Source: a virus. From it: a stretch of 64,000 nt of DNA. Every line of letters starts with the position of its first letter. Position 1 is the first letter of the stretch. The position numbers and the translations under genes are program-made. Location of the stretch: the IMG/VR virus record IMGVR_UViG_3300017971_000228, positions 34,107 to 98,106 of that record; one strand, written 5' to 3'. The notes under the pieces were generated by a model. It was not told the DNA's origin. It did no database searches and worked only from the letters and a program-made list of their open reading frames with translations. This document shows positions 4,571 to 62,948 of the stretch, one piece after another.

Positions 4571-5073
4571 TGCCGGTCCTTCTGAAGATCTCCACCCAGG
4601 GTTTTGAGGCGACGGCGGGGCGGTTCGCACGGGCGCAGAGCTTCCTGCCGCATAGCTTCCAGCAACGGCTGGGAGAGCTGATGCGCAGCATCCGGGACGT
4701 GGTGCGGGCCGAAGCACCGCCCAATCTGAGCCGATACGTGACGCACCGAACGGAGATGCTATCCCATAGTCCGGCAAGGGCGCTGGGGAAGATCGACCTG
4801 GAGCAACCGCCGAACCCACCCTATCCAGCGGAAATCTGGGACTACATCATCAAGGGGACGAAGCCCCACCCGATTGTACCACGTCGGGCGCGGGCGCTGG
4901 CCTTCTACTGGGAGAAGGTAGGGGCGGACGTAGTACTGCCCCACGTAAATCATCCCGGTACGGACCCCAACGACTTCCCGGCGAGGGCGTGGCGCAGGAT
5001 CGGGAGGGGGCATCTAGAGCGGACGGCGGCGAAGATCGGGCTGGACGTGGTGGGAGTGCTGGGGGGACAATGA
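4570..5073 (+). CDS. HK97 gp10-like tail completion/neck protein
   Basis: GTKPHPIVPRRARALAF...VNHPGT..NDF..RA motif. Confidence 0.7.
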   Translation: MPVLLKISTQGFEATAGRFARAQSFLPHSFQQRLGELMRSIRDVVRAEAPPNLSRYVTHRTEMLSHSPARALGKIDLEQPPNPPYPAEIWDYIIKGTKPHPIVPRRARALAFYWEKVGADVVLPHVNHPGTDPNDFPARAWRRIGRGHLERTAAKIGLDVVGVLGGQ

Positions 5074-5492
5074 GCTGGACGGGGGTACGAAGCGGGGCCT
5101 GTAGCCTGCTGATTGCGACCAGCATCTACGAAGCTGACAATAATACAGGCTGGATTGACCCAGGCGTACTGGACACGACGACATGTCGCTGGGCGGCCAT
5201 CTTCGCACCGGGGCCTATTGAGATCCCGCGTACGACCTTCGGCAGCCATCACGTCACTTGGTCGCTCATCCTGCAGACCTGGATTATCAATGACGGCAAC
5301 TTCGACAACTGGCAGGACGACCACGATACGGTGATCCAGGACACGGTGGATGCGCTGCGGTCGGATGATACGCTGGGGGGGAGCTGTGACAACGCCGTCA
5401 TCAGCCTGGTAGACATCAGCGTAGAGGAACGGGGAAACCGGCGGTACGACGTGTTGAGCTGGCTAATAGAAGCAGAAGAGTACGGACTGTAG
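5070..5492 (+). CDS. Putative tail terminator protein
   Basis: ATGA overlap with the upstream gene; ALRSDDTLGG motif; position. Confidence 0.6.
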   Translation: MSWTGVRSGACSLLIATSIYEADNNTGWIDPGVLDTTTCRWAAIFAPGPIEIPRTTFGSHHVTWSLILQTWIINDGNFDNWQDDHDTVIQDTVDALRSDDTLGGSCDNAVISLVDISVEERGNRRYDVLSWLIEAEEYGL

Positions 5493-12835: not shown

Positions 12836-14382
12836 TGGCGCAGAGCATCGCCGGCACGAGTCTGTGCGCCAACGCCATATCACACAACCGCAAGGTGCTA
12901 TGCCAGGTGGACGTGGCCTGGGGGCAGACCTGGGCTACCCTGTCAGCCTCGGACTGGGTAGACGAAAGCGCCCACGTCCTGGCGGTAGACGGCAATATGT
13001 CGCTGGCGGAACCGGGGGTGGGACTCACCCGAACGGGCGCAGCGGACGTCAACACGGCTCGGGTGACGCTGCGGAACTACGACAACCGTTACAGCCCCTG
13101 GAACACGAACAGCGCCATCTATGCCTCCACCTGTGGCGGGCAGCTCTTCATGACGCCTATCTCTGTCTGCGTCGGATTTGACGCCGCCGGCACACCGGAG
13201 ATGCTGCACCAGTTCGCTGGCGTCATCGCGCGACCCACAGAAGAAACCATCTCCAAGACGGCGACATGGGAATGCAAGGACCGAAGCTGGACCTTTCGGT
13301 CCACGAAATATGCCACCAGCGTCTGTACGGACATCACGCCTGACGCCTATCTGGGAGCACTGTGTACCCAGGCCAGCATTGCAGCAGCGGATCGGACCTT
13401 TGATGAGGGATCGCTGAGCTTTCCCTACGCCTGGATGGATGAAGAGAACATCGCCGCAGAGATGCAGGACGTGGCCCAGGCGGATGGGGGGATGCTGTAC
13501 TTCAACAAGTCCGGCAGCCTGATCTATGAGAACATCAATCACTGGCTATCGGATACTGACTGCATTGACACGGCGGGAACCTTCGACTTCACGGTAAGCG
13601 ACTTCCAGGAATTGCAGCCGGAGTTCACGCACAATGAAGTCTACTCAGGTGTCATTGTCGAACAGAACGTGCGAGAGCGGGGGGCCATCCATACCGTCTA
13701 TTCGCGGACGGACCCCATCTACATCGAGCCTGCGGGAACCCAGACCATCAAGTGCCGGCTGAACAAGCCCATATTATCATTGGAGACACCGGAAGAGGAT
13801 ACGGACTATCTGATCATGACGGGGGGCGGGCGCAAGGTGTCGGGGAGCGTAAGCATCACGTCCACTTCCTACGCCCAGCAGGTAGACGTGACCTTTACGA
13901 ACTCTTCCAGCGCCTACGGCATGTATATCACGCGATTCGAGTTGCGGGGGGAGGCGCTGTGGGGTGGCCCCGTGGCGGAGAGCAAGGAAGAATCGACCGG
14001 GGGCTACATCGAGGAAGAGAAGCTGCTGGAACTGAGGGGCAATTCCTACATCCAGCGGCAAGCCCAGGCGGACATGCTGGCCAAGTTCCTGCGGGATCGG
14101 ACGGAACGGCCTCGGGAGATCTACCACCTGTCGGGGGTGCCGGGCATTCCCTGGCTGGAACTGACGGACCGTATCTCCATCACCGAGGCGGACTCGGGTA
14201 TCACGGCCTGCGCCCACATCTTCGGGCTGGGGTGGCGATTCATCGGCGGTGCGGGGGCGCTCTATGAGCAGGACATCACGGCGGTGAACGCTGCGAACCT
14301 ATTCCCCTATGATAGCGCAAGTTACTTTGTGATCGGTTCCTGCGAAATGAGCGGTAGCGACAGTGCAATCCTGGCGTATTAG
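12835..14382 (+). CDS. Tail tip/hub protein
   Basis: TLRNYDNRYSP.N, G.LYFN..G, PWLEL.DRI patterns; position. Confidence 0.65.
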   Translation: MAQSIAGTSLCANAISHNRKVLCQVDVAWGQTWATLSASDWVDESAHVLAVDGNMSLAEPGVGLTRTGAADVNTARVTLRNYDNRYSPWNTNSAIYASTCGGQLFMTPISVCVGFDAAGTPEMLHQFAGVIARPTEETISKTATWECKDRSWTFRSTKYATSVCTDITPDAYLGALCTQASIAAADRTFDEGSLSFPYAWMDEENIAAEMQDVAQADGGMLYFNKSGSLIYENINHWLSDTDCIDTAGTFDFTVSDFQELQPEFTHNEVYSGVIVEQNVRERGAIHTVYSRTDPIYIEPAGTQTIKCRLNKPILSLETPEEDTDYLIMTGGGRKVSGSVSITSTSYAQQVDVTFTNSSSAYGMYITRFELRGEALWGGPVAESKEESTGGYIEEEKLLELRGNSYIQRQAQADMLAKFLRDRTERPREIYHLSGVPGIPWLELTDRISITEADSGITACAHIFGLGWRFIGGAGALYEQDITAVNAANLFPYDSASYFVIGSCEMSGSDSAILAY

Positions 14383-14393
14383 GGGAGACGGGC

Positions 14394-15821
14394 ATGCTTG
14401 AGTGGGAGGATCCGCCCTCATTCTCGTCATCACAATCCAGCGGCGTTAACGTGGTACTGAGTGCCACGAAGCTGCGGATGTTGAACAAGGACGTGGACTT
14501 CCTGCAGGGCAGGGCCGACGGGCCTCACACCGTCTTTGCGGGGACGTATTGCCAAGCGACGCCCTCATCTAGCGGGACGATCTGGGAAGGGTGGATTCGG
14601 CACAAGAAGGACGCCCTGCGTTACGGTGCTTTCGTTGCGGGTTCTTCTTCGGCCAGCATCCAGATTGAGGGGGATGAGGATGCCTGGGAGACGCTGGCGA
14701 CCTGTGACTTTGGGGAAGCGACGGGGGCCTGGGTGGAGATCGGGGCCAGTACGGACATCTCTTCAGCCTGCATCACCTCGGGGTGCTGGTATCGTATGCG
14801 GGTGGGGTTGAACGGTGCCGGGGGGTCCATCCATCTGGCGATGCTGGAAGAGACCTGCCCGATTCAGGGATGGGTAGCACCACCTACTTTCTCGGCATGT
14901 ACGGAAGATCTGGCTGCCAGTCTGAACACACTCCGCGATGACCTGAATGCGCTGAAGGCCAATAGTGATGCGCCTTTCGGGGCCTTCGGCGGCATGACTA
15001 CGCCCATTGAAGATTCCACCGCTTCGGACGTATGGTACAAGGACGACTCCTACAACAACGCACCGCACTATGACAACTGCTACTTTGGTGGGGGGTTCTA
15101 CTATCCCGCTTGGTCAGCGGGCAGTGCCTTTGTGAAGTATGTCTACAAAGTCGGCTCTGGCAGCCTCTCGGGCAGCATTTACGCTGATGCGGGGGCGGGG
15201 CTGTCAGGCGATGCAGAGGGCACCTTCTCCTGTTCTGAAGGGGATACATACGAAGGGAGGGTGAACATCACCGGCGTAGCGGATACGGCGGGGTGTCTGT
15301 GCCGTCTGAGGATGCGAATTGAGGCAGACCCATCAGCCTGTGGGGCAGATCAGTTCAACCTTCTGTACCTGAGTGTGTACGCTGATGAGACGGATTCCAT
15401 CGCGGGCTGTTCGTTGCGCCACTGGGAAAGCGGGTGTCACATCGACTTCGCCGACCTGAACATGACGGGCAGCCGGATGGATCTGCTGGACGGGGCGGGG
15501 AAGCTGGCCTACTGGCGCAATGCAGCCATCAAGCGGATAGGTATCACGACCCCCAACGAAAATGAGGGATTTCGCATTGGTCTTCACCGGCGACGGGGGT
15601 TCCCTATCCTTCACTACTACAGCAACAGTGGTCATGAGAACCCCCACCTCAAGTTCCCCGATCCATCAGAGAATGACTGGCATACCCAGAAGCTGGACAC
15701 GGTATTGGATACTTGGCACACGATAGATCTGGACCAGGTGCGGGGGTTGTACGAGGGCATGTACTACAATGCTGATGAGGTTGAAGTAGCGCAGGAGTGG
15801 GATGAGGGCCTGAATGCCTAA
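14394..15821 (+). CDS. Minor tail protein (Cys-rich)
   Basis: Position; repeated W..PP.F...A..LN.L..D motifs. Confidence 0.55.
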   Translation: MLEWEDPPSFSSSQSSGVNVVLSATKLRMLNKDVDFLQGRADGPHTVFAGTYCQATPSSSGTIWEGWIRHKKDALRYGAFVAGSSSASIQIEGDEDAWETLATCDFGEATGAWVEIGASTDISSACITSGCWYRMRVGLNGAGGSIHLAMLEETCPIQGWVAPPTFSACTEDLAASLNTLRDDLNALKANSDAPFGAFGGMTTPIEDSTASDVWYKDDSYNNAPHYDNCYFGGGFYYPAWSAGSAFVKYVYKVGSGSLSGSIYADAGAGLSGDAEGTFSCSEGDTYEGRVNITGVADTAGCLCRLRMRIEADPSACGADQFNLLYLSVYADETDSIAGCSLRHWESGCHIDFADLNMTGSRMDLLDGAGKLAYWRNAAIKRIGITTPNENEGFRIGLHRRRGFPILHYYSNSGHENPHLKFPDPSENDWHTQKLDTVLDTWHTIDLDQVRGLYEGMYYNADEVEVAQEWDEGLNA

Positions 15822-20503: not shown

Positions 20504-22030
20504 CTACATAGCACCCGCAAGCCAGAGACCGGTAACTTCGTCGTCTTCGATGAGGATGGCGCGTAGGACGCTGGTGAGGTTGGCGCGGAGGGCCTGCCGT
20601 TCCTGGGGGGTGAGATTATCATTCGCCAGCAGGCTGATGTGTTGGGGCAGTTCGTGGATGAGCAGATCGCGCAGCTCGTCACGTTCTCGGACTCGCTGCC
20701 GTTCTGCGTCAATCCTGGCAAGTTCCTGAGTGTTCTTGTCCAAGCGGGCCTTGAGGGCCCTGGCCCGTTCGGTGAAATCGGGAAGGGTGATGACACCGGA
20801 TTCATAGGCTTCCCAGACACGACGCTGGCGCAGTTGGGTGTCATCCCGGTCAGCCAGTAATCGCCGTTCTTCCATCTCCCAGCCCTGGTCATCGGGGGCT
20901 TCCATCTGCCCCAAGAGTTCATCCAGTATGCGGGGGTTTCGGGCCAGCCTGATGAAGTAGTCCACCACCTTCTGGTGAATGACGTGGGTTCGCATGGAAT
21001 GGATACGCCAGTCTCGGGTAACGCTTCGACACCGATAGTACCGTCCGCCCCATTCTCGCTGATTGCCGGTGAAGAACCTATCATGGTGGACGCAGTAGAG
21101 TAGTTGGCTAAGTAAGAACGGTGCATTGCGGGAACGGGGGTGGTCCCCATCACGGCGACGCTGTTCGGCCTGTACTCTGTCCCACATGGATGGATCATAC
21201 AGTCCCTCAAAGGTGGCTTCGGCCAGTATGCAGTCTTCCCAGGGGAAGACGACGGCCGTCCGTTTTCCATTCCGCCTGATGTAGCGCCGCCGGCCGTAGG
21301 CTACCATCCCATAGTAGGCGGGCTGGTTCAGGATCCGATTGATGAGATCCTTGCCCCACTTTCCGCCTCGGGACGTGGCCAGACCGAGGCTGTTAGCTTC
21401 TTCGATGATCCACTTCTTGGTGACGCCACGAAGGAAGCTGTCTATCACGAAGCGGACGGTACGTTCGGCCTCGGGATCGACGAATTGGACGCGGGGCTTG
21501 CCCGAACCGTCCGACACGTAGGCGAACCCGAAGGGCAATCGAGATGGGGGAGAGCCGCGGCGCACCCTGGCCTTCATGCCCATCTCCCGACGCTGCTTGA
21601 GACGCAGGACTTCAGCCTCGGAGTAGCCAGACTCAATAGCCTCTCCCCAGACGTCCGCCTCCGTCCGTTCGTCGGTATTCGAGGGGGGCATGGTACGGGA
21701 GTATACCCTGACACCGTGATCCTGCAAATAGTCGGCGACGGCCCGATTGAGGCGGCGAGTACGGGCCAGTCTATCGCGGGACTTGACGATGATCCACTGG
21801 ATGTTGCCTGACGTGGCATGTTCCTGCAACGTGCGGTAGGCGGCGAGGTTCTTGACAGCATCGGCCATGCGATGATAGGATCGGGATTCGCCGGGGACGG
21901 TGATGTCCGCCACCAGTTCCCAGTCCAACGCTTCAGCCAGCGCATGGTTCAACCGATGCTGGTCATTGAGGGATTCCTTCTCAGCCTGGGGTTTGGAGGA
22001 TACGGCAGCCCAGGAGATGGCTCGGGTCAT
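20504..22030 (-). CDS. Large serine recombinase (integrase)
   Basis: Resolvase N-domain (AVSS..Q, SL.DQ, SRDRLAR), recombinase domain (PFGF, IL.QPAY.G), Zn-ribbon-like LYC...YYRC, coiled coil. Confidence 0.92.
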   Translation of the reverse strand: MTRAISWAAVSSKPQAEKESLNDQHRLNHALAEALDWELVADITVPGESRSYHRMADAVKNLAAYRTLQEHATSGNIQWIIVKSRDRLARTRRLNRAVADYLQDHGVRVYSRTMPPSNTDERTEADVWGEAIESGYSEAEVLRLKQRREMGMKARVRRGSPPSRLPFGFAYVSDGSGKPRVQFVDPEAERTVRFVIDSFLRGVTKKWIIEEANSLGLATSRGGKWGKDLINRILNQPAYYGMVAYGRRRYIRRNGKRTAVVFPWEDCILAEATFEGLYDPSMWDRVQAEQRRRDGDHPRSRNAPFLLSQLLYCVHHDRFFTGNQREWGGRYYRCRSVTRDWRIHSMRTHVIHQKVVDYFIRLARNPRILDELLGQMEAPDDQGWEMEERRLLADRDDTQLRQRRVWEAYESGVITLPDFTERARALKARLDKNTQELARIDAERQRVRERDELRDLLIHELPQHISLLANDNLTPQERQALRANLTSVLRAILIEDDEVTGLWLAGAM

Positions 22031-25571: not shown

Positions 25572-26306
25572 ATGATGAACCAGGAACAGCTAGAACGCCT
25601 GAAGTCTCCGTTCCCAGCTGAGGAAGTCCAGTGGCGGGCAGGTGCCACCAACAAGGATGATACCAAGGCTCTGGCCCTGGCCTACATTGACGCTCGTGCG
25701 GTAATGGAGCGACTGGATGAAGTAGTAGGGCCCATGAACTGGACCGACACCTATGATGAGTGGAAGGGTGGTGCAGTCAAGGCTGGCATCGGCATCCGCA
25801 ATGAAGAGGGCTGGGTGTGGAAGTACGACGGGGCGGATGATTCGGACTTTGAAGCTACGAAGGGTGGGTTCTCTGATGCCTTCAAGCGTGCGGCCGTCAA
25901 GTGGGGCATCGGACGCTATCTCTACCAGCTTCCAGCAGTTTGGGTTCCGTGCCAGAAGTACGGCAAGACCGTCAGATTATCAACCACACCAGCACTGCCC
26001 AAGTGGGCCCTGCCCGACGGCGATACTTCATCCCCAAGATCCGAACCACAACCAGAACCTACCGAGGAACCAACAGCTGAAGAACCCACGACTGGGAAAC
26101 CAAAGCCCTGGGTGGTCAACAATAGTACCCGTGGGCGCTTCTGGGGATGGGCCAAGAAGGCTGGCTTGTCCCACGATGACGTTCACACCGCCCTTGGCAT
26201 AGACAGCCTCATGGACTGCGATCTGGACTATGGCGAGGCCCAGAAGGAAGCCCTACGCTGGCGGGACCAGCAGAAGCAAGCGGAACCCGAAGCTCTACCA
26301 CTCTAA
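25572..26306 (+). CDS. Rad52/Sak-like single-strand annealing protein
   Basis: LAYIDARAVMERLDEV, KGGFSDAFKRAAVKWGIGRYLY. Confidence 0.9.
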   Translation: MMNQEQLERLKSPFPAEEVQWRAGATNKDDTKALALAYIDARAVMERLDEVVGPMNWTDTYDEWKGGAVKAGIGIRNEEGWVWKYDGADDSDFEATKGGFSDAFKRAAVKWGIGRYLYQLPAVWVPCQKYGKTVRLSTTPALPKWALPDGDTSSPRSEPQPEPTEEPTAEEPTTGKPKPWVVNNSTRGRFWGWAKKAGLSHDDVHTALGIDSLMDCDLDYGEAQKEALRWRDQQKQAEPEALPL

Positions 26307-50738: not shown

Positions 50739-52193
50739 ATGCCTTCGGCGGAGCCTGAGTTGAATCTCAAAGCGCAACCCGGTCGGCAGCAACGCTTCTT
50801 GAGCTGCCCGGTGGACATCGCCATCTATGGTGGCTCCGCCGGCGGCGGCAAAACGCACGCCTTACTTCTAGAGCCTACCTACCACTACAAAGTCCCTGGC
50901 TTCTCGGCGGTATTCTTTAGGCGGACGTACCCTCAGATCACCATGCCGGGTGGCCTGTGGGACGAGTCGATGAAGATCTACAACGCCCTGGGTGGACGGC
51001 CACGCAAGGGGGAGCTGGATTGGCGCTTCCCTTCGGGAGCGTCCATCACCTTCCGTCACATGGAGCACGAAGACGACAAGTACAAGTACCAAGGGGCCCA
51101 GATCTGCCTGGAGTGCTGGGATCAGTTGGAAGAGATGAGCGAAGGCCAGTTCTTCTACCTGCTATCCCGTAACCGTTCAGTATGCGGGGTGAAGCCGTAC
51201 ATTCGAGCCACGTGCAACCCCGATCCTGATTCATTCCTGGCCGACTTCATCTCCTGGTGGATCGCTGATGACGGCTACGCCGATCTGAGTCGTGAGGGGA
51301 AGATCCGGTGGTTCGTGCGGGTGGGAGATGACATCGCCTGGGGCGACTCCCGTGCCGAGCTCATCTCCAAGTACCCACCTCCAGACTACGAACCGAAGTC
51401 AGTTACTTTTATCCCGGCCACTATCTTCGACAACCCGGCGCTCCTGCAGGCGAACCCCAGCTATCTGGCCAACCTGATGTCCCTTCCGCCAGTGGAGAGA
51501 GAACGTCTGTTAGGAGATGTCAAGCGTGGCGGCAACTGGAAGATCCGCCCAACAGCAGGAACCTTGTTCAACCGCGCCTGGTTCGGCATCGTAGACACCA
51601 TCCCAGCGGGGGGAGTGGACTGCCGCTACTGGGACTTCGCCGCTACGGAAAAAGAGGTGGGGGGCCATGACCCAGACTTCACGGCCTCCGTTCGCATGCG
51701 CTACCTGGACGGCATCTTCTACATCCTGGACTGTACCGCCGACCGCATAGGACAAGTGGCCGCAGACAAGATGATGTGCAACCTGGCTCAACAAGACGCC
51801 CAGGACTGCCAGGACGTTGGCGCACGCTACACCATCCGCTGGGAGCAAGAACCGGGCGCCTCCGGCAAACGTGAAGGCCAACGCCTCGCCGCCATGCTGG
51901 CCGGCTACGACGCTCGCCCCGTCGCATCCCGTGAAGACAAACTCATCCGCGCCCACGGTCTCTCAGCTCAAGCGTCCGTAGGTAACGTCAAACTACGCCG
52001 GGGCCGCTGGAACGAATCATGGCTCACCCACATGCACAACCAACCCCAGACTCCTAAGAAGGACATTATGGACGCCAGCTCAGGCGCCTTCAATGCCCTC
52101 ACCCTCTACGCCCGAAGCCAACCGGATCTCAACCAGTCGTACATGGGCTCACGCTGGGGAGCACGCAAGACTTCATGGAGTAAGTGGAGATAG
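50739..52193 (+). CDS. Terminase large subunit
   Basis: YGGSAGGGKT, FRRTYPQ, ATCNP, DNP.L, RYWDFAA, EQEPG.SGK, D..DA. Confidence 0.93.
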   Translation: MPSAEPELNLKAQPGRQQRFLSCPVDIAIYGGSAGGGKTHALLLEPTYHYKVPGFSAVFFRRTYPQITMPGGLWDESMKIYNALGGRPRKGELDWRFPSGASITFRHMEHEDDKYKYQGAQICLECWDQLEEMSEGQFFYLLSRNRSVCGVKPYIRATCNPDPDSFLADFISWWIADDGYADLSREGKIRWFVRVGDDIAWGDSRAELISKYPPPDYEPKSVTFIPATIFDNPALLQANPSYLANLMSLPPVERERLLGDVKRGGNWKIRPTAGTLFNRAWFGIVDTIPAGGVDCRYWDFAATEKEVGGHDPDFTASVRMRYLDGIFYILDCTADRIGQVAADKMMCNLAQQDAQDCQDVGARYTIRWEQEPGASGKREGQRLAAMLAGYDARPVASREDKLIRAHGLSAQASVGNVKLRRGRWNESWLTHMHNQPQTPKKDIMDASSGAFNALTLYARSQPDLNQSYMGSRWGARKTSWSKWR

Positions 52194-52208
52194 GAGGGGG
52201 GTACTCCC

Positions 52209-52775
52209 ATCGCAAACCACGGCGGCCGTGCGCACGAAGAAATAGTCAGCCTCATCCGCTACGCAGTCGGCAGCGTCCTGCTTGACGAAGGGCTGATCCT
52301 GGGCGTGATCGGAGACGACTGGCTCATGGCATTCATGCTCGGGACGCTAGGGCAAGGGCTAGGTTCACGTGGTTCAAACTACCCGGACCTACTCTTCACC
52401 TTCAAGCAGGGCCCACCGCTCCTACTCGAAGTGGGTGGCTACGATCCAGGCAAGTGGCCCGAAGAACTGCCAGTAGTTCACGTCGCAAAGAACCACCGGG
52501 TGTCTCTCGTCAACTGGACGGGTAGGCAAGAAGAATTCACCGCGCTGACCCTCATCCGGACAACCGTACACCATCACTTCTACCACGAACGAGTCAAACA
52601 GTGGGCGGTAGAAGACGAGGAACTGATGGAACGGCTGCTCTACGTGCAGGAAAAGGGCGGCGATGAGCCACCAGAAGAACCGAAACGACCAAGCCGAGGC
52701 AGAAAAGATGAACAACTGCTCGTAAAAGCGGCAGGGGGGTGGGCAGTCTGGAACCGAAATCGGCGGAATTGGTAG
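52209..52775 (+). CDS. Hypothetical PD-(D/E)xK-like protein, probable ATC start
   Basis: Frame open from the TerL stop; YPDL...LLEVG motif; AGGAGG SD. Confidence 0.5.
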   Translation: MANHGGRAHEEIVSLIRYAVGSVLLDEGLILGVIGDDWLMAFMLGTLGQGLGSRGSNYPDLLFTFKQGPPLLLEVGGYDPGKWPEELPVVHVAKNHRVSLVNWTGRQEEFTALTLIRTTVHHHFYHERVKQWAVEDEELMERLLYVQEKGGDEPPEEPKRPSRGRKDEQLLVKAAGGWAVWNRNRRNW

Positions 52776-52959
52776 GCGAAATGAACGACGCAGGGGGCGG
52801 GAAATGCGGAACGGGTCAGTGGGACTTGCGGAAACGCCAACCGACGGGCACGCGCCGACGCGCCCACAAAACTGCGGGGCGACAGCGGCTCCGATCATCG
52901 TGCCGTTGGCGTGGTTCAAATCAAGCGGCGGGGTGCCCCCTCGGGATTCGCGGATGGGT

Positions 52960-52981
52960 TGGTATAATGTACCTTATACCA
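52960..52981. promoter_or_regulatory. Palindrome TGGTATAA-N6-TTATACCA containing an extended -10
   Basis: 8-bp inverted repeat in the long non-coding region after terminase. Confidence 0.45.
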
Positions 52982-54078
52982 ACCTAGTTCTTCCCAATTG
53001 GCGTAGTTTCTGTATAGATGGGGCGTGCAAAGTGGGAACATTCACTCAGAAGTACCCAGGGCGGTACTCCATGAGAGAACAAGGGTGCGTGAGAAATTGG
53101 CCGGGGGGAGGGGGTTCCGGAACCCTGGTAGGGTTACCGAAAGCGATCTGGAGAAGAGCTGACGCACAAAATGATGAGTTCGGGGACCTCAACGCGGCTG
53201 CGCACGGTGGATTTCAGCGTCCAAGTTCACGCGAAAAGTGTCAGAATCACCAGAATTTCCAGAAATGGCGGATCGGCCCTGCGCCAGCCTCTCCCACAAT
53301 TTTCCCTACTCCCAACCCATCTATACCCCTATGGGAACGGGGGGCTTTGACGATCCCTACGCTTTCGGCCCTTGAGTGGAATGGCCAGTTTTTTTGTAGA
53401 GGGGGTTACGGATGCTTGAACGGGTAGCGGCGTTGGTGTGTTTGGTAGGCTGCTTCGTGATGATAGGGGTAGTGACGTGGATGGAAAGGAGGAGGTGATA
53501 GTCTGTGACACGAAACCTGCTGTGGTGGGTGTGTTTCGTGTGGTGAAGATGATTGGCGCATGCGAAAGGAGGCGTGATGTTTCTAAACTGGCTGAGAAGT
53601 ACTACGGGGACTCCGATTGTATGGATAGTTCTAGGATGGGTAAGTTATGAGCTTTGGGCCGCAAAGGGCTGGCCGATGTGGGCGTGGATACTGTTTGTCG
53701 TAGGTGTAGGCACCGCTGATGCGGTACTAGAGGCGATGCTAAGGTGATCGGCTACATAGCCCTCGGCTTTGTCCTTGGCGTGGCGGCATCGTGTGCGGCG
53801 TACTGGTGGATCTACGAGCACCAGGACCGAGTGTGCGATGCCATTGAGGCGGCACATCGAGAGTGGTAGGGGGAGGGGGCGATGGTGGCGAATGAGAGTA
53901 TAGCCCTTAGGAATCTCGCCGTTGACGGTGGCGAGATAGGCGTAGAGGCACATATTGATGAGCAAGTGATAGCTCTCAATATCGATGCTGTGGACAGGGC
54001 ATGGGTTCGGTTGACCAAGGTGGAGGCGCAGGGGCTTGTCAACAGGCTAGAGGAGGCTATTGCAATACTGGGGTGGAG

Positions 54079-54627
54079 GGAGGCCGACGATGAGTGAGAC
54101 TATCTGTCCACGATGCCAGGGCAAGGGGATTGTGATAGCAGAGATGGACAGCAAGGACCTGCCCGATGGGCTGGTATGGCAGTACATTTGCCCTGATTGT
54201 GACAGCTACGATAGGCTGAAGAAGGACGTGGTAACACTGTTGAAGGAGGCCGACGATGAGCACTAGCTATTACAGGCTGAAATCGCCAGTAACTTGCTTG
54301 AGGCTAAAAAAGGGCCCGAGGCACGACTATCTTTCCATCTGGGTGAATCACGCTCTTGTAGGACAGCTTACCCTTGCCAACAGGGAAACCCAATCGTTCC
54401 TACAGATACTGGCGGAGTGGAACGAGCCGCCCATGAGAACACACTGGGGAGGGTCAGGCAGGGGAGCAGTTGTTACCATCAACGATCCAAACCTATCTGA
54501 CGAGGATCTTCTCATCAGCGAGTACGGACAACTACTGACAGTGGCGCAGATCAAAGAACGAGATGGAGCAAAGCGTAAGGATGGGATGCCCACCGAGATG
54601 TTCGGGTATGAGGAGGCCGACGATGAG
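54079..54627 (+). repeat. Three exact copies of GGAGGCCGACGATGAG at gene junctions (54079, 54245, 54612)
   Basis: Each copy provides the SD and ATG of the next gene and the EADDE end of the previous one. Confidence 0.9.
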
Positions 54628-54630
54628 TGA
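54256..54630 (+). CDS. Hypothetical cassette protein
   Basis: Bounded by EADDE repeats. Confidence 0.6.
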   Translation: MSTSYYRLKSPVTCLRLKKGPRHDYLSIWVNHALVGQLTLANRETQSFLQILAEWNEPPMRTHWGGSGRGAVVTINDPNLSDEDLLISEYGQLLTVAQIKERDGAKRKDGMPTEMFGYEEADDE

Positions 54631-54825
54631 AGGACTCCCCAGGAAAGTAGCTATCGAGTATGAACTGCTTTTCTGGCATCGAATGTGGGTCTACCGATGT
54701 TGTTGGTGCGATCGACTGTTCACGATTCTAGCTGTGTTCGAGGATGAACATGGCGAGCCGAAGGCGTGGTCGGGACAGGCTGGTGATGACATGCACTGTC
54801 CATTCTGTGGAGGGGAGCAAAACGC

Positions 54826-55071
54826 ATGAAAGCTAATGATGCAGGACTCCCCGTGCCTGGAAGAGCTAACATGGTTCTTCAAGCCATCAAGAGAAGGGAG
54901 TATGCTATTGCAAGGGAGATATGTGACGACACTGGCATACCACGTTCTACAGTGAACCGCTATCTCTTGTGGCTGTATAAGAAAGGCTTGGTGCGCAGAT
55001 CGCTTATCGAAGACCAGACTTTCTTTGGAACATACTTATACGCAGCACTGGAGTACAACAATGAACCTTGA
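54826..55071 (+). CDS. Winged-helix protein with GLPVPGR leader
   Basis: AREIC..TGIPRSTV.RYL..L...GLV. Confidence 0.7.
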   Translation: MKANDAGLPVPGRANMVLQAIKRREYAIAREICDDTGIPRSTVNRYLLWLYKKGLVRRSLIEDQTFFGTYLYAALEYNNEP

Positions 55072-55103
55072 CACCAATGGACTTCCTCTGCCTGGGAGGG
55101 ACG

Positions 55104-55412
55104 ATGCCTAGCTATTACAAGTTCAAGTGTGAAGCATGTGGATTCACTGGCATACGCTATCGAAACGTCAAGAAGTGTCCATCTTGTGATGAGCATGAAT
55201 TATTCAGATTTGAACCACGGCCTGGGCCAGAAACATCGGCAGTCTTGGATGTGCTTTGCCAGATGTTTGACGAGATGGAGTTGACACCAGACGAAGTAGA
55301 CGCAGAGTTGAGACGAGTGGGCTATGATCCTGATGAAGTAGCTGAGAGATTCCGCAAGATTGTGGAGCCGCTACTAGAGCAGAAAGAGAGGGAGATCAAT
55401 GCTAGAGAATGA
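55104..55412 (+). CDS. Zinc-ribbon protein
   Basis: MP.Y.FKCEACG...CPSC; start preceded by the repeat-borne SD. Confidence 0.6.
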   Translation: MPSYYKFKCEACGFTGIRYRNVKKCPSCDEHELFRFEPRPGPETSAVLDVLCQMFDEMELTPDEVDAELRRVGYDPDEVAERFRKIVEPLLEQKEREINARE

Positions 55413-56614
55413 AGGAATGATGGCTGATAGAAGCTGGTGCAGCAAGGATGGGTGGCAGCATATCCATCCTGACGTGGAGTGGGATTACCTGCGGATGGAG
55501 ACCCTGCGTAAAGAACTGAAGCCGATACTGGACAGCTATATCCACTGGGAGCTTTCGGATGGAGGGGAATGGTCTTCGGGGGATTGGGAGCATTATGGGC
55601 AATTGGTCTGTGAAGTACGTCTGGTATTGACTACGTTTCAAGATCAGTTGATGCAACGACTTGTCCATGCATTCCTTGGAGCTAACGATGAACCTCAATG
55701 ACGCCAAAGGACTCCCTCTGCCTGGGCGCAGATGGGAACTACTGATTTTCCTGGATCGCCACCTTTGGCACTGGCATGTCAACAGGGCCGTAGGCAAGTA
55801 CAAGCCCTTCCTCTGGGAGACGTGGCTAGGCCCATTCTGTTTTCGGGTATGGCGTGATCCACGATCCGTGTCTAGCGTGAGCAAGGCGGTTAGGGTACTG
55901 GGGAGGATCAATGCAATTCAATAACCAAGGACTCCCTCTGCCTGTCTTGTTGCCTTGGGCATTGCCCCCTGTCGATTGCATGGCTGTAAATGTAGGTGGA
56001 TTAGTCCTGTTGCCCTGGGAAGATGAAAGAGCAGAAACGATGGTCTTTGTTGAGCCGTATCCTCCTTGGGACAGACATGAGTTTGTTCGGCACGAGTACC
56101 GCTGCATTGGGGATGTGTGCAACTGGGTATGGAGGAGGATTGCATGAAGACCGAAGGACTCCCTCTGCCTGGGAGGGAGCTATGACAGCAATCGTAGCAA
56201 TATCCAACAAAGGGGTGCTTCATCGAGTGGTATCAGGCAAGTTTGATCCAACATGGAATTGCGATGTCAGGGTTGCTTGTGGAGCTATCTCAGATTGGTG
56301 CTACATGGGCATGAGAGATGTTGAGACGTTGAGTGGGCCAAGGTGTAAGCGGTGCTTTGGGGAGGAGGTGGAAGAAGATGAAACCCAACCCTAGCGAACT
56401 CCCTCTGCCTGGGAGGGGGCTATGACGCATAAGCGTAGGTGGAGAGTAAGGATTGATCCCAAGAGACCACACCAGTCCAAGATATGGTTCGATGACATAC
56501 CGCTGGCAGGCACATACTGTGTCCGCATAGAGTCTCGTGACAACTATTCATGGGCAACCTTCTGTGTGCCTGGAAGATACCGCAACGTGGACTGGCTGAC
56601 AGAGGAGGAAAGCG

Positions 56615-57121
56615 ATGAACTTGCGGCTGAATAGTAACGGCTTACCCGAACCTGGGAGGGAGCTGGATGAATACATGGCGACGAAAGTAATGGGATGCCG
56701 TTCGGTTTGGGTACGCTGTAAGATAGGGGGTACTACACTGATAGGGGGTTGGTATCTCACTGAAGAAGACTGTAAGGCTGCTATCACTGAAAAGCTGCGT
56801 GAGGAACTCTACTATGCTAGAAAACTCTGGGTGCGCAATGGAGCACACTGGAAATGGGCTGATGAATGGACGCCCTCCACCACCCACGCCTTCTTCCAGG
56901 TGATGGAGGTGGATAGTGACTGGCGATGGAGATTCACAGAGCATACGCGATGCTTGTTTGCATACCTATTCCGAGACGAACAGCATCAGGTGGCCTTTGA
57001 GATATACCCTGACGAGCCAACGAGCAAGCCGATATGGGCGCTTGTGAACTGGGCCGACTACCCCTCCCGAGAAGAAGCCTACGCCCATGCAGTCTGTTTG
57101 TGTGGGTTCCAAGGGAAGTGA
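56615..57121 (+). CDS. Phage ABA-sandwich-like protein
   Basis: PGRELD...A.KVMG, PST..AF.V.E, A.A.CL motifs. Confidence 0.65.
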   Translation: MNLRLNSNGLPEPGRELDEYMATKVMGCRSVWVRCKIGGTTLIGGWYLTEEDCKAAITEKLREELYYARKLWVRNGAHWKWADEWTPSTTHAFFQVMEVDSDWRWRFTEHTRCLFAYLFRDEQHQVAFEIYPDEPTSKPIWALVNWADYPSREEAYAHAVCLCGFQGK

Positions 57122-57131
57122 GGCAGTCTAG

Positions 57132-57410
57132 CTGACACGCTGGAACCGCAAGACCGTCCGCGAATACGCCCCCTACACCCGATGGGATTGGACCGATCCG
57201 ATGCATGATGCGTTGGACTGCTTATCGGGTTCTTCCTGTGAACTGTTCAAGATGGCGTACTGGCAGGGCTGGCCCAGGGAGCAGATCGGGGTGTATTGCC
57301 AGCGTTGGGACAAGAAGAGGACATTGACTGCCGGCCAGGTAACTACTCGACTCAACGATATCTGCGAGGAGGTGGCTTGTCTGATGAACCAACACGAGCA
57401 GAGGAGGTGA
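57132..57410 (+). CDS. Sigma70 region-4-like HTH protein, copy 1 (probable CTG start)
   Basis: Homology to the next gene extends upstream of the ATG (RW...TVR.YA.Y...D..DPMH). Confidence 0.55.
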   Translation: MTRWNRKTVREYAPYTRWDWTDPMHDALDCLSGSSCELFKMAYWQGWPREQIGVYCQRWDKKRTLTAGQVTTRLNDICEEVACLMNQHEQRR

Positions 57411-57412
57411 GG

Positions 57413-57655
57413 ATGGGGCAGAGGTGGACGGCTGATACGGTAAGGGACTACGCAGTCTATCCGAAGTACGACGCATCCGATCCGATGCACGCTGTAGTGC
57501 AGGCGCTGCCAGATGTGGACCGCACGCTGTTCATCGACAGCTATTGGGAGGGCAAGACGCGCAGGGAAGTGGGCGAGGAGTGGGGCGTGACGGGCTGCAC
57601 CATCTCCGTTCACCTGACGCGCATACTGGGCAACATCGCCTCCTGCTTGAGTTAG
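57413..57655 (+). CDS. Sigma70 region-4-like HTH protein, copy 2
   Basis: LP..DR.LF...YWEG.T..EVG...GVT..TIS..L.R. Confidence 0.65.
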   Translation: MGQRWTADTVRDYAVYPKYDASDPMHAVVQALPDVDRTLFIDSYWEGKTRREVGEEWGVTGCTISVHLTRILGNIASCLS

Positions 57656-58009
57656 GTTAACGGTTGTTACGAATCTAATCTGGCAAGGGGGTGGGGCTAT
57701 AATTAAGGTGAGGCATATTATCATTCATGCTCAGCCCCTGCACAACCTACCACTGAGGGATGGAGGGGCCACGGTAGGGACTGCTGGGTGGCAGGAGGTA
57801 GGCTCTGGTTCGTAGCACTGGGCCGGGGCGTGGGGAACCCCAGGGGCCAACTCACGCCAAGGAGGAAGGATGCCGGATTGGGTTTGTGAAGTAGCGTTGT
57901 GGGTGACGCATCTGCCCTGGACGCCGATGGACATTACGTCGCCGATCAAACACGTGGGGTTGTATGTGGCAGTAACCTTGGCCTGGGCGCTGGTATTGGG
58001 GCTGAAGGC

Positions 58010-58225
58010 ATGAAGTGTCCCATCTGTGAGAAGGAAGTTGGCCAGACCATCATCGGACATCTGACCGTTACCCACGGCATGAACCCCGTGCAGATGCTGG
58101 CGACGCTGTTCTGGCAAGTGGATAGGTTGGAGCGGTTACTGGATGAGCTGGCGGAGGCCGTGAAACAGGAGGTAGGCTTGCTGGCAAAGCTGGAAGAGCG
58201 TGTTGCTGAGGAGGAAATCGAATGA
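58010..58225 (+). CDS. C2H2-type zinc finger plus coiled coil
   Basis: CPIC...HL...HG. Confidence 0.55.
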   Translation: MKCPICEKEVGQTIIGHLTVTHGMNPVQMLATLFWQVDRLERLLDELAEAVKQEVGLLAKLEERVAEEEIE

Positions 58226-59286
58226 TCGCCGGTTCTATGCCCCCCTACGTCTTCGGCTCTGGTGCCATCCAGTCGCTGCCTAGGTTGCTAGCGAAGCGGC
58301 GGCCTGGGTGGGTGCTGTGGCTGGTAGATCACTACTTTCGCGGGCTGAGAGAAATCTGCCTGCATGGTTCGAATATCTCAGACCAGCGGTTCTGTGTGGA
58401 TACCACCTTTGAGCCGACGGTGGAATCCGTGGATCGTATAGCTGAGGTCGTGCGAGACATAGGTGATGCGCCTACTGCCATCGTCGCCATTGGCGGCGGT
58501 TCCACCATGGACACCGCCAAGGCAGTCTCCGTGCTCCTCACCAATCCCGGCAAGGCAGCGGATTATCAAGGCTGGGATCTGGTGAAGGAACCCGCGGTCT
58601 ACAAGATCGGCGTTCCTACCATCTCGGGGACCGGCAGCGAGTCATCCTCTACGGCTGTCCTTACCAACCACGCCAAGGGGCTGAAGCTGGGGATCAATTC
58701 GCCGTACTCACGATTCGATCAGGTGGTGCTGGACCCGGACCTGACGAAGACGGTGCCGCACGAGCAGCGGTTCTACACGGCGATGGACACGTGGTTTCAC
58801 TGCAATGAGTACCTGTATGGACATGAGCACAACCGACTGACAAGTGAGTTAGCAGAATCAGCGGCAGGGCTAGTATCAGAAGTTTTTGTACCATACTGGT
58901 TGGACCCGCCAGCGGACGACGATGCAAGAGAAATGCTGATGGTAGCATCCTATCTAGGCGGTGCTGCTGCTGGATGCACAGGGCTAGTTCATCCATTCTC
59001 GGCGGGCCTGAGCATGGTACTGGGGCTGAGGCACGGGTTGGCGAATTGCGTGGCGGTACGGGGGTTGCAGGATCTAGCGCCGATGTATCACTGGTTCATG
59101 GACTACTTGGAAGATAGCCACATCGAGCTTCCCACTGGCCTCTGCGCCGACCTGACCGATGACCAGATGGAACAACTCTATCAATCCACCATCGTCCACG
59201 AGAAGCCCTTGCGGAATGCGCTGGGGGATGGGTGGCGGGACGTGCTGACACGGGAGAAGGTGCTAGAGATCTTCGGGAGGATGTGA
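58222..59286 (+). CDS. Iron-containing alcohol dehydrogenase, KdnB-like sugar oxidase
   Basis: GGGSTMDTAKAVS, YQGWDLVK.P, PTISGTG.E, KLGINS, FYT.MD...HC.E. Confidence 0.8.
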   Translation: MIAGSMPPYVFGSGAIQSLPRLLAKRRPGWVLWLVDHYFRGLREICLHGSNISDQRFCVDTTFEPTVESVDRIAEVVRDIGDAPTAIVAIGGGSTMDTAKAVSVLLTNPGKAADYQGWDLVKEPAVYKIGVPTISGTGSESSSTAVLTNHAKGLKLGINSPYSRFDQVVLDPDLTKTVPHEQRFYTAMDTWFHCNEYLYGHEHNRLTSELAESAAGLVSEVFVPYWLDPPADDDAREMLMVASYLGGAAAGCTGLVHPFSAGLSMVLGLRHGLANCVAVRGLQDLAPMYHWFMDYLEDSHIELPTGLCADLTDDQMEQLYQSTIVHEKPLRNALGDGWRDVLTREKVLEIFGRM

Positions 59287-61408: not shown

Positions 61409-61728
61409 TGAGGCTGAAAGAACGTGTTCAGGTTCTGGAGGACAAGCAGCAGGATATGGAGAAGAGGCTAGTAGAAGCAAGGATTCTAACTGAGCCCTGG
61501 GACTGGTCTGCATGGCCTTGGGAAACAATGGACTCTGGCAGCGTACTCATTCGCAAGAGAAGTCATGCTATTCGCCTGGTAGATCTTGTAGAGAAGATAG
61601 AGAAGTTGGAACAAAAAGTGGATCTGCTGGCAGCTGAAGGATGTCATCTTGAGTTCAGATGGGTTAGGGACAAGGTTGAGAAGGCCCATCATGAATTGGT
61701 GCCCTTGGGGGATGCTGAGTGCGAATAG
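61405..61728 (+). CDS. Coiled-coil hypothetical protein
   Basis: GGAGG SD; coupled ORF. Confidence 0.5.
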   Translation: MMRLKERVQVLEDKQQDMEKRLVEARILTEPWDWSAWPWETMDSGSVLIRKRSHAIRLVDLVEKIEKLEQKVDLLAAEGCHLEFRWVRDKVEKAHHELVPLGDAECE

Positions 61729-61782
61729 TCATCCGAGTCATCGGGTAGTAGTGCTGAATATGACCGGGGAAGAGAGGAGATT

Positions 61783-61980
61783 TTGCAGTTACCAGTAGCA
61801 GGTTGGACAGATGAAGGTCTGCGGTCCTGCCCTTTCTGTGGGGGCAGGGTAATGCTGTCATTCTATGACGGCAGTATTCACTGTGATACATGCGGCAAAC
61901 GCCAAGAATCCAGCCGAAGCGAATATGAAGCAAGGTGTAAATGGAACACACGCGCATGCGAATCATCATCCGAGTCATAG
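61783..61980 (+). CDS. Lar-family restriction-alleviation zinc ribbon
   Basis: L.SCPFCGG...C..CG...EA...WN.RA. Confidence 0.7.
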   Translation: MQLPVAGWTDEGLRSCPFCGGRVMLSFYDGSIHCDTCGKRQESSRSEYEARCKWNTRACESSSES

Positions 61981-62948
61981 CTTCCCAAGAACATGGACTG
62001 GGCCACGTCTATCGGGCGATGACGCTGGCGGAGGAGTTTGAGCGGCTGGGGCATGAGGTGCGGTTCGCTTGCGGCAATGACGCTCTAGGTCTGGTAGAGC
62101 AGATAGTTGGGGTACGGTATGGGGTGGATGCTGGTCACTCTTCCGACTACGCACTCTTTGCATGGCCCACACTCGTTATCAATGACATCTTGGACACTAG
62201 CGAAGAGTATGTAGAAGCCCTCAAGGATGCGGGGCGCAAAGTCATCAACTTCGAAGACCTTGGCCCAGGTGCGGACCACGCCGACCTCGTCATCAATGCT
62301 CTCTTCCAGACGCCTCAACGCGAAGGTGACCACTATCTGTGGGGGATAGACTACTTCTTTCTGCGTGATGAGTTCGTTCAAGCACAACCGTCGCCCTGGA
62401 ACAACCAGGTGGACAACGTACTGGTGTCCTACGGTGGCACGGATCCTACGGATCTCACCTGGAAGACGGTGAATGCCATCGCGCCCTACTGTCGGGAGCA
62501 CAAGATCACCATGTACATCGTCGTGGGACCAGGCTATACGGTGGAGCGCGAGGCCGCGGTGTTGAAACTGCTGTGGGACTGGGGCGTGGAGCGGGTGTTC
62601 TTCGTGCGGGAGACGGGGGTGATGGCGCAGATCATGAGCCGGTGCCAGCTGGCGTTCTGCTCCAACGGGCGGACGGTGTATGAGCTGGCGCACATGCACG
62701 TGCCGGCCTTTGTGATAGCTCATCATGAACGGGAAAACACGCACGATTTTGCCACTAGGGAGAATGGGTTCGCCAACATGGGTGTCTATCGGGAAGGGTT
62801 GATGTACGAAATGCGAAGGTTCGGGGAGTGGGCTGCTGAAGCTGCTGATGTCAGACGCGAGTGCTGGGAAGCCATGCAGCGGTTCGATCTGAGTGGGAAC
62901 AAGGAGAGAGTGGCGAGGAGGATACTGGAGGCATGTAATGAGCGGTAG
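61956..62948 (+). CDS. PseG/SpsG-like nucleotide-sugar hydrolase/glycosyltransferase
   Basis: GLGHVYR..TLA, FEDLG.GA..AD.VINAL, LR.EF, YGGTDP, NGRTVYEL. Confidence 0.85.
   Translation: MRIIIRVIASQEHGLGHVYRAMTLAEEFERLGHEVRFACGNDALGLVEQIVGVRYGVDAGHSSDYALFAWPTLVINDILDTSEEYVEALKDAGRKVINFEDLGPGADHADLVINALFQTPQREGDHYLWGIDYFFLRDEFVQAQPSPWNNQVDNVLVSYGGTDPTDLTWKTVNAIAPYCREHKITMYIVVGPGYTVEREAAVLKLLWDWGVERVFFVRETGVMAQIMSRCQLAFCSNGRTVYELAHMHVPAFVIAHHERENTHDFATRENGFANMGVYREGLMYEMRRFGEWAAEAADVRRECWEAMQRFDLSGNKERVARRILEACNER

Follow-up and report, generated by a model that had tools for sequence, protein, structure and literature searches.

The DNA analysed here, referred to as the window, is the right-hand 64 kb (64,000 nucleotides (nt)) of the 98,106-bp IMG/VR virus record IMGVR_UViG_3300017971_000228, which represents an uncultured phage. 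It contains an array in which seven unrelated tiny genes are headed by copies of the ribosome-binding site (RBS) and first ~14 codons of the gene at the downstream end of the array. This resident gene (56615..57121, + strand) encodes a protein of 168 amino acids (aa) from a divergent Phage_ABA_S subfamily, the source family of the repeated leader. The leader carries the peptide GLPLPGR, coded by GGA CTC CCT CTG CCT GGG AGG, and its eight copies, including the start of the resident gene itself, are all on the + strand and confined to 54.6–56.7 kb.

Anatomy of the repeat array

The 22-nt core of the repeat, GGACTCCCTCTGCCTGGGAGGG, has four matches at ≤3 mismatches, all of them at 55079–56417 on the + strand, against 0.01 expected; none of 100 shuffled sequences reached four. 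With a 14-nt core and ≤1 mismatch, the whole 98,106-bp genome gave five forward and no reverse matches, and a backwards control gave none. A six-frame scan for the peptide motif (G/E)LPxP(G/V)(R/L) located it at 54844, 55079, 55709, 55929, 56156, 56396 and 56639 and nowhere else credible, while the copy at 54632 is only partial (an 11-nt match, GAAGGACTCCC, peptide GLPRK). The nucleotide and peptide scans together confirm the copies reported in the first-pass annotation and their spacings of 212, 235, 630, 220, 227, 240 and 243 bp. They do not confirm the degenerate copy that it placed near 55414, which agrees with the core at 8/22 positions, the chance level, and was dropped. The small open reading frames (ORFs) held in the intervals are unrelated, as had been proposed: all-against-all BLASTP detected no similarity between them past the common leader. 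An assembly artefact was considered and rejected, the repeat being shorter than typical assembly k-mers and its flanks unique, the 98-kb contig ending in an exact 123-bp terminal repeat, and the product of the last gene being on record in three contigs.

The units share one order, with GGAGG in the last codons of the upstream gene followed by the ATG, 4–8 variable codons, the GLPLPGR core and the cargo gene. The leader start is usually ATGAA and overlaps, or lies shortly before, the stop codon of the upstream gene; there is an ATGA overlap at the copies designated J1 and J6, and the other leader ATGs are 8–17 nt before the upstream stop. In four or five cases the copy forms an in-frame fusion with its gene, and three copies stand alone as mini-ORFs of 13–16 codons (coordinates below are all + strand). 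In J0, J4 and J5 the fused leader provides the only start codon of the cargo. J0 (54623..54642) is the partial leader MSEGLPR, fused to the 68-aa gene at 54623–54829; the evidence for it is the match GAAGGACTCCC to J6, located exactly at the gene start, and its 5′ half is a different junction repeat, GGAGGCCGACGATGAG. J4 (55688..55726) is the leader MNLNDAKGLPLPG of the 78-aa RRWE-family gene, and J5 (55911..55944), fused to another 78-aa gene, is truncated after CCTG (MQFNNQGLPLP).

The stand-alone copies are J2 (55061..55111; MNLDTNGLPLPGRDDA, 16 codons), J6 (56144..56185; MKTEGLPLPGREL, 13 codons, with the complementary arms CUCCCUC and GGGAGGG) and J7 (56378..56425; MKPNPSELPLPGRGL, 15 codons). 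Each stops on the ATG of its cargo, at 55104 (ATGCCTAG), 56182 (ATGA) and 56422 (ATGA), respectively. GGGAGGG is found 4–6 nt before these cargo ATGs and is predicted to serve as their Shine–Dalgarno (SD) sequence. J1 (54826..54870; MKANDAGLPVPGRAN) has the same layout, with a degenerate GGAAGAG, but is in frame with a winged-helix gene owing to a 2-nt difference; the native ATG of that gene is probably at 54871. Compared with the consensus, J1 has three synonymous changes and one change at a variable position. J8 (56615..56665) is the resident leader, the first 17 codons (MNLRLNSNGLPEPGREL) of the ABA-sandwich-family gene.

Eight cargo genes occupy 54623..56634 on the + strand, and each junction either overlaps or is bridged by a leader mini-ORF. 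They encode a Cys-rich protein (54623–54829, 68 aa), a winged helix-turn-helix (wHTH) protein (54826–55071, 81 aa, with HTH_IclR, TrmB and MarR matches over residues 13–76), a Zn ribbon (55104–55412), the product of 55399–55701, the RRWE-family protein (55688–55924), the second 78-aa protein (55911–56147) and the products of 56182–56394 and 56422–56634. For six of the eight, neither Pfam nor PHROGs suggested a function. Every called frame scores positive for codon usage and the alternative frames negative, and a 41-aa alternative ORF at 55732 was rejected on this basis. The array genes score lower than core genes, and the GC content at 54–56 kb is 51.7% compared to 55–61% over most of the window, which suggests foreign composition.

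The array is part of a 3.6-kb chain (53553–57121) of fifteen small genes and three mini-ORFs, in which junctions overlap or are separated by ≤12 nt. No promoter-like or convincing terminator-like site was found on the + strand within the array in a scan of 52000–58500, an arrangement counted as support for a single predicted operon. Upstream of the chain, the ~780 nt that follow the gene next to the terminase (52776–53552) contain no convincing ORF and may hold the promoter or regulatory region of the small genes. CUC CCU, which codes for Leu-Pro, is exactly complementary to AGG GAG, which codes for Arg-Glu, and J2, J6 and J7 are therefore able to fold a 6–8-bp stem over the SD. The minimum-energy folds of J2, J6 and J7 contain this stem, with z-scores of +0.24, −2.2 and −0.45, respectively (the J6 fold is −19.7 kcal/mol). 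Since only J6 folds better than shuffled sequences, occlusion of the SD is kept as a hypothetical function. Programmed frameshifting from leader into cargo was rejected, as J2 would require +1 and J6 and J7 would require −1, and each of these cargo genes has its own SD and ATG; a promoter or terminator inside the repeat was looked for and not found.

Origin of the leader and of its copies

The proposal that the repeat copies the start of the last gene, which it resembles over ~15 codons, is upheld by the family of the resident protein. Relatives of this product are few; a profile search recovered 36 family members from ENA, Logan, JGI and NCBI metagenomes, and all 36 start with M-x-L-[ND]-x-x-GLPxPGRELD despite an overall identity of 26–38%. 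The family has conserved ends, a hypervariable middle and a total length of 110–199 aa. None of 30 members is recognised by Pfam (PF18066 above cut-off). The protein encoded at 14287–14715 in the nearest relative by terminase, the phage genome L008 (57% identity), does match PF18066 (4e-15), and hhalign of the family profile A5 against it gave a probability of 97.3% and an E-value of 2e-11, with the alignment starting at G14-R-E-L-D. In an AlphaFold model of the resident protein, residues 1–20 have a predicted local distance difference test score (pLDDT) of 84–86. The top VIA-align match of the model is 1r7l, the founding ABA-sandwich structure (Z 7.0, root-mean-square deviation 3.1 over 93 residues), with a Z that is within the range of common arrangements; the Foldseek E-value is 0.16. 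Because the N-terminus is invariant, the PF18066 alignment begins at G14-R-E-L-D and the first residues are confidently modelled, the leader peptide is assigned to the ABA-type protein. Based on these comparisons it is the conserved N-terminal extension of a divergent ABA-sandwich subfamily, and its conservation as a peptide follows from its being part of such a protein.

The leader has been put onto at least one cargo gene. The RRWE gene (55688–55924) has 11 homologues, 38–60% identical in alignment, which start M-x-x-RRWE and lack the leader; in the window MNLNDAKGLPLPG stands in place of those first residues. The leader was therefore grafted onto this cargo. The homologues end a few codons from the position of the next leader's ATG, and the transferred unit was thus very nearly a single ORF. 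Two family members from phages in other metagenomes point the same way. P0043 has two leaders in tandem, 19 residues apart, and in P0037 an ABA-type protein is joined to a homologue of the array gene 54623–54829 (51% identity over 41 residues, E 2.5e-12).

The copies themselves were compared over a 21-nt core, which is 16–20/21 identical among J2, J4, J5, J6 and J7. J8, which belongs to the resident gene, diverges most (10–14/21 against the non-partial copies and 7/21 against the partial J0). A divergence gradient among the repeats, suggested as a check, was absent: nothing in J0–J8 trends toward the resident gene. The earlier idea of repeated insertion at a single site, with a new duplicate of the gene start at every event, is not supported, because both the divergence of J8 and the absence of a gradient exclude serial duplication of the present resident start. 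The stretch of 12–21 nt from ATG to core is different in every copy; as peptides these stretches are like natural family variants. Among J1, J2 and J8 there are seven synonymous and two non-synonymous codon changes, both of the latter at the variable x position of the family; a binomial estimate for 7:2 is ~0.008, taking one third of single-base changes as synonymous. This pattern fits a sequence that evolved as an ABA-type N-terminus and is no proof of a peptide function on the cargo.

Duplicated gene starts are not confined to GLPLPGR. The junction repeat GGAGGCCGACGATGAG (54079..54627, + strand) has three exact copies, at 54079, 54245 and 54612, each encoding the EADDE tail of one gene together with the SD and ATG of the next, and joins three unrelated genes in a row, all with an EADDE end. 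At its third occurrence the repeat passes directly into the partial GLP copy, forming a chimeric junction. The otherwise unrelated genes at 54256 (124 aa) and 55104 (102 aa) share the start (T/P)SYY(R/K)(L/F)K (54263–54281 and 55108–55126, 16/19 nt), which is apparently another mosaic joint just inside a gene start. A restriction-alleviation gene of the Lar family (61783–61980, + strand, TTG start at 61783; PF14354 32.4 bits against a cut-off of 28.6) is flanked by a direct duplication (61719–61744 and 61956–61981, + strand, 21/26 identical) in which the opening ~8 codons of the pseG-like gene downstream are repeated.

The same architecture is found in two distant relatives. In L008 (19575–20357) the start MI(R/H)HFINL of a 163-aa gene (ATGATCCGCCACTTCATCAACCT, MIRHFINL) is present three times, the two upstream copies being mini-ORFs of 12 and 14 codons whose start codons overlap the preceding stop (ATGA, GTGA). 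A small gene of a family of paralogues (MNGAI) follows each, and one of the mini-ORFs ends on the ATG of the next gene. In L032 (minus strand, + coordinates ~4610–5106) an 11-codon mini-ORF repeats the 36-nt start (MKYYKILN) of a 189-aa gene 461 nt upstream of that gene, and small ORFs lie in the interval. Since the geometry is the same and the sequences differ in this genome, L008 and L032, the process is taken to be generic and not a GLPLPGR-specific machine. The recurrence points to gene-start duplication during insertion or segmental duplication as the putative origin.

Closer relatives were sought in several collections. The relatives identified through the terminase are ≤57% identical and have none of the array genes in common. 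An exact 17-mer search of IMG/VR gave only two singletons, and an 18-mer search of metagenome contigs gave 40 singletons, about the estimated chance number, none of them with blastn or tblastn similarity to the region. There was no match for the ABA protein or profiles in IMG/VR and GTDB genomes, for the RRWE cargo profile in IMG/VR, or for relatives in INPHARED. A leader-only search (P0022 residues 1–40, proteins <88 aa) yielded no candidate and was weak, in that it also missed the fused proteins of the window.

The array lies 2.4–5 kb downstream of the large terminase gene (50739–52193), and a nucleotide-sugar gene block lies upstream of it. The Sak protein invoked in the first-pass annotation is indeed encoded: a Rad52/Sak-type single-strand annealing protein (25572..26306, + strand, 244-aa frame) has PF04098 scores of 36.5 and 25 bits, both above cut-off, and is a candidate enzyme for recombination between short repeats. 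There is no RecT in the genome. The statement that no dedicated cassette integrase is adjacent also stands. PF00589 had no match across the whole 98-kb genome, with the tyrosine recombinase control positive in 14/14 genomes, and the only serine recombinase, a large protein with a Resolvase domain (20504–22030, − strand, 33.9 bits), is ~33 kb from the array and on the opposite strand. With a serine recombinase and Rad52/Sak, the phage may be temperate and has its own homologous-recombination function.

Two further observations concern other parts of the window. Just downstream of the resident gene, at 57132–57655, two small paralogous ORFs share RW.xxTVR(E/D)YAxY...DPMH; the open frame of the first lacks an ATG, GTG or TTG at its beginning, and the second has a weak Sigma70 region 4 match (21.9 bits, below cut-off). 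An ORF of 1155 aa at 1–2600 carries long direct repeats within it, at a period of 852 nt and with many exact 14–20-mers, and resembles a repeat-domain structural protein.

A proposed route and competing explanations

The reading preferred here, at a probability of about 0.55, is that the repeats are copies of the 5′ end of the resident ABA gene (RBS, ATG and first 11–17 codons) that arose through ORF stacking and have been kept for translation. The leader copies would most likely be the scar of gene-by-gene accretion, which also gives each gene its translation start. The anatomy of the array, the source of the leader and its graft onto one cargo gene are established, and a recombination route and a coupling function are inferred. 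Small foreign ORFs would have been stacked upstream of the resident gene, with recombination joints a few codons inside the gene start, and segmental duplication or insertion with staggered joints would duplicate the start and leave the resident gene intact, which is why such events could survive. Once two or more copies existed, they would provide 17–28-nt homologies through which Rad52/Sak or host recombination could add, delete, swap or homogenise units. Copies would be retained for translation initiation, either as a start codon or as a coupled mini-ORF carrying the SD of the cargo. In the former case the leader runs in frame into the cargo as its only start codon (J4, J5 and J0). In the latter it ends on the cargo ATG (AUGA or AUGCCUAG) after passing GGGAGGG (J2, J6 and J7, with an in-frame version in J1), and GGGAGGG could pair with the CUCCCUC of the Leu-Pro codons. 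The result would be a 3.6-kb chain translated by termination–reinitiation.

Several points weigh against this account. A 17-nt core is near-identical in five copies, yet the 12–21 nt between ATG and core differ everywhere, a sharp contrast that simple duplication and drift leave unexplained and that therefore calls for nucleotide-level selection or gene conversion. The right-hand boundary GAGCTA common to J1, J6 and J7 hints at copying of one unit and not at independent joints. In L008 the start copies are 78–93% identical, compared to ~61% for the two flanking paralogues that can be aligned. The z-scores of J6, J7 and J2 are weak support for the hairpin. No genome in the collections searched is near enough to display gain, loss or swap at the repeat, and the recombination history is read from a single genome and from analogies.

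The contrast between core and flanks is what would be expected if the core were mainly a cis-regulatory nucleotide element under selection, its likeness to the ABA start being only ancestry. Such an element might be an SD-sequestering RNA hairpin, a translational-repressor site or a wHTH operator (dyad ACTCCCTC-N7-GAGGGAGC), and it would agree with flanks saturated with changes, with the stem over the SD in the folds of J2, J6 and J7, with the pairing in J4 of the same 5′ arm with a different 3′ arm, with the 81-aa wHTH gene inside the array and with the better conservation of the L008 start copies than of the genes that they flank. This explanation is considered unlikely, as J4, J5 and J0 lack the 3′ arm and J1 has it in degraded form, the fold z-scores are mostly insignificant, no known RNA family was matched in Rfam, the element is confined to a 2-kb cluster and not present at other genes, and the relatives show the same architecture with unrelated sequences that lack such a dyad. 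The first 4–8 codons, which differ per leader and look like natural family variants (MNLDTNGLP resembles P0005 and MNLNDA(K)GLP resembles P0004), could instead be read as the diverged 5′ ends of tandem ABA-type paralogues whose bodies were replaced by other ORFs, and L008 does have two tandem PF18066-type genes with repeated starts and ends. Identical core codons in five copies would be unexpected for old paralogues, however, and the rest of the genome showed no trace of an ABA body or its conserved C-terminus, so that a wreck of this kind is improbable.

It is slightly less probable again that GLPLPGR is a functional N-terminal tag, whether a targeting or processing signal like the capsid-targeting sequence of T4 internal proteins or a nascent-chain regulatory peptide. 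The excess of synonymous changes in J1, J2 and J8 (7 against 2), the in-frame position of four or five of the eight copies and the invariance of the peptide in 36 family members would all suit a tag, but the last is explained by the source family, in which the peptide is modelled as part of the protein (pLDDT 84–86). Three copies terminate ahead of the cargo and are out of frame with it in two ways (+1 for J2, −1 for J6 and J7), J5 has only GLPLP, J0 only GLP and J7 Glu for Gly, the in-frame proportion of 4/7 is not significantly different from the expected one in three, and the homologues of the J4 cargo work without a tag. The least probable of the explanations weighed is a dedicated integron- or CRISPR-like capture platform, at which ORF-sized cassettes are integrated at the core, beside the resident gene, with one repeat added per event. 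The first-pass annotation had spoken of CRISPR- or integron-like accretion, and the regular units of 212–243 bp, the co-oriented copies, the unrelated cargo, the identical right-hand boundary in J1, J6 and J7 and the double leader without cargo in P0043 are in keeping with it. Nothing found resembles either machinery. The genome has no tyrosine recombinase and its sole serine recombinase is distant and on the other strand. No attC-like structure is present, and comparing the array genes and their neighbours with Pfam and PHROGs produced no Cas-type match, these being general scans with no cas-specific search run. In addition, the copies form no divergence gradient, J8 stands furthest from the others, the part next to the ATG is particular to each copy, and the same pattern occurs with unrelated gene starts here, in L008 and in L032.

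Beyond gene-start duplication as such, a more speculative proposal, which we regard as doubtful, is that gene capture in this lineage is driven by homology, with ORF-sized DNA set a few codons into the start of a resident gene and each start duplicate being both the landing pad for a further capture or exchange through Rad52/Sak and a ready translation leader. Such capture may amount to an ‘integron without an integrase’, most developed here (eight copies) and at earlier stages at other genes and in L008 and L032.

Comparison with known systems

CRISPR arrays consist of 23–47-nt repeats and non-coding spacers of similar size and have cas genes close by, whereas the intervals here are 212–630 bp and protein-coding. 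The likeness to integrons lies in promoterless, co-oriented, gene-sized units, a recurring site and unrelated cargo. The array differs in having neither an IntI-type tyrosine recombinase nor an attI/Pc platform, and in that its repeat is a coding gene start. It also differs from attC sites, which are imperfect palindromes of ~57–141 bp, in that the copies share 17–28 nt, have an 8-bp stem in 3/8 and are set in unrelated flanks. The Lar/pseG junction of the same window is similar to the array, with a small foreign ORF at a gene boundary and a 20–30-nt direct repeat including the truncated downstream start; it is a single event, whereas in the array the same start occurs eight times in series and appears to be reused as a start or coupling signal.

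In termination–reinitiation coupling, short upstream ORFs (uORFs), AUGA overlaps and SD-occluding stems are characteristic, and the downstream start requires upstream translation. The array resembles coupling uORFs in its stop/start overlaps and in a short ORF that reads through an SD contained in a predicted stem. The difference is that one leader ORF is reused serially at several junctions, and that this is a recycled protein N-terminus and not a dedicated leader.

The SAS and ESAS (start-associated sequences and extended start-associated sequences) of Cluster K mycobacteriophages are 13-bp non-coding motifs found genome-wide and conserved gene-for-gene among relatives, about half of the SAS being extended by an inverted repeat (Pope et al. 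2011; PMC3203893). Like SAS, the array motif (GGGAGGG in J2, J6 and J7, degenerate in J1; all copies on the + strand) is directly before start codons, overlaps the RBS and has one orientation. The array repeat differs in being confined to a 2-kb cluster, in having its own SD and ATG, and in being coding and derived from a protein N-terminus.

The array has two practical consequences. A mini-ORF with the same start as a gene lying a few hundred bases further downstream could be used as a signature for recently acquired phage genes, and N-termini shared by small phage proteins can be recombination scars and not functional motifs, which is a warning for annotation. The recurrence of the pattern, here and in two distant relatives, suggests that accretion in the lineage has repeatedly gone through duplicated gene starts.

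The ways in which phages gain and express tiny accessory genes, often with anti-defence roles, are only partly understood, and the best-described vehicle is the promoter-early stem-loop (PeSL) cassette of the hyperplastic regions of T4-type phages (Arbiol et al. 2010, PMC2839356; Comeau et al. 2014, PMC4122927). A PeSL consists of a sigma-70 promoter and a terminator stem-loop, and is transcriptional and non-coding (PMC2839356). Recombination between PeSLs has been proposed, and partly shown, to shuffle, delete and circularise single genes (PMC2839356, PMC4122927). In both cases short conserved repeats of an expression signal flank small, mostly ORFan, co-oriented genes in a variable region. 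Unlike the PeSL, the array repeat is the coding gene start and RBS of one resident protein family and would act on translation; it has no promoter-like site on the + strand (52000–58500), its stem is without a T-run and the scan showed no terminator at the repeats. The PeSL is the closest functional analogue, and the array appears to be a new form of repeat-flanked ORF shuffling in phage variable regions. It may be regarded as the translational counterpart of the PeSL, in which a recycled N-terminus and RBS head unrelated mini-genes in one predicted termination–reinitiation chain.

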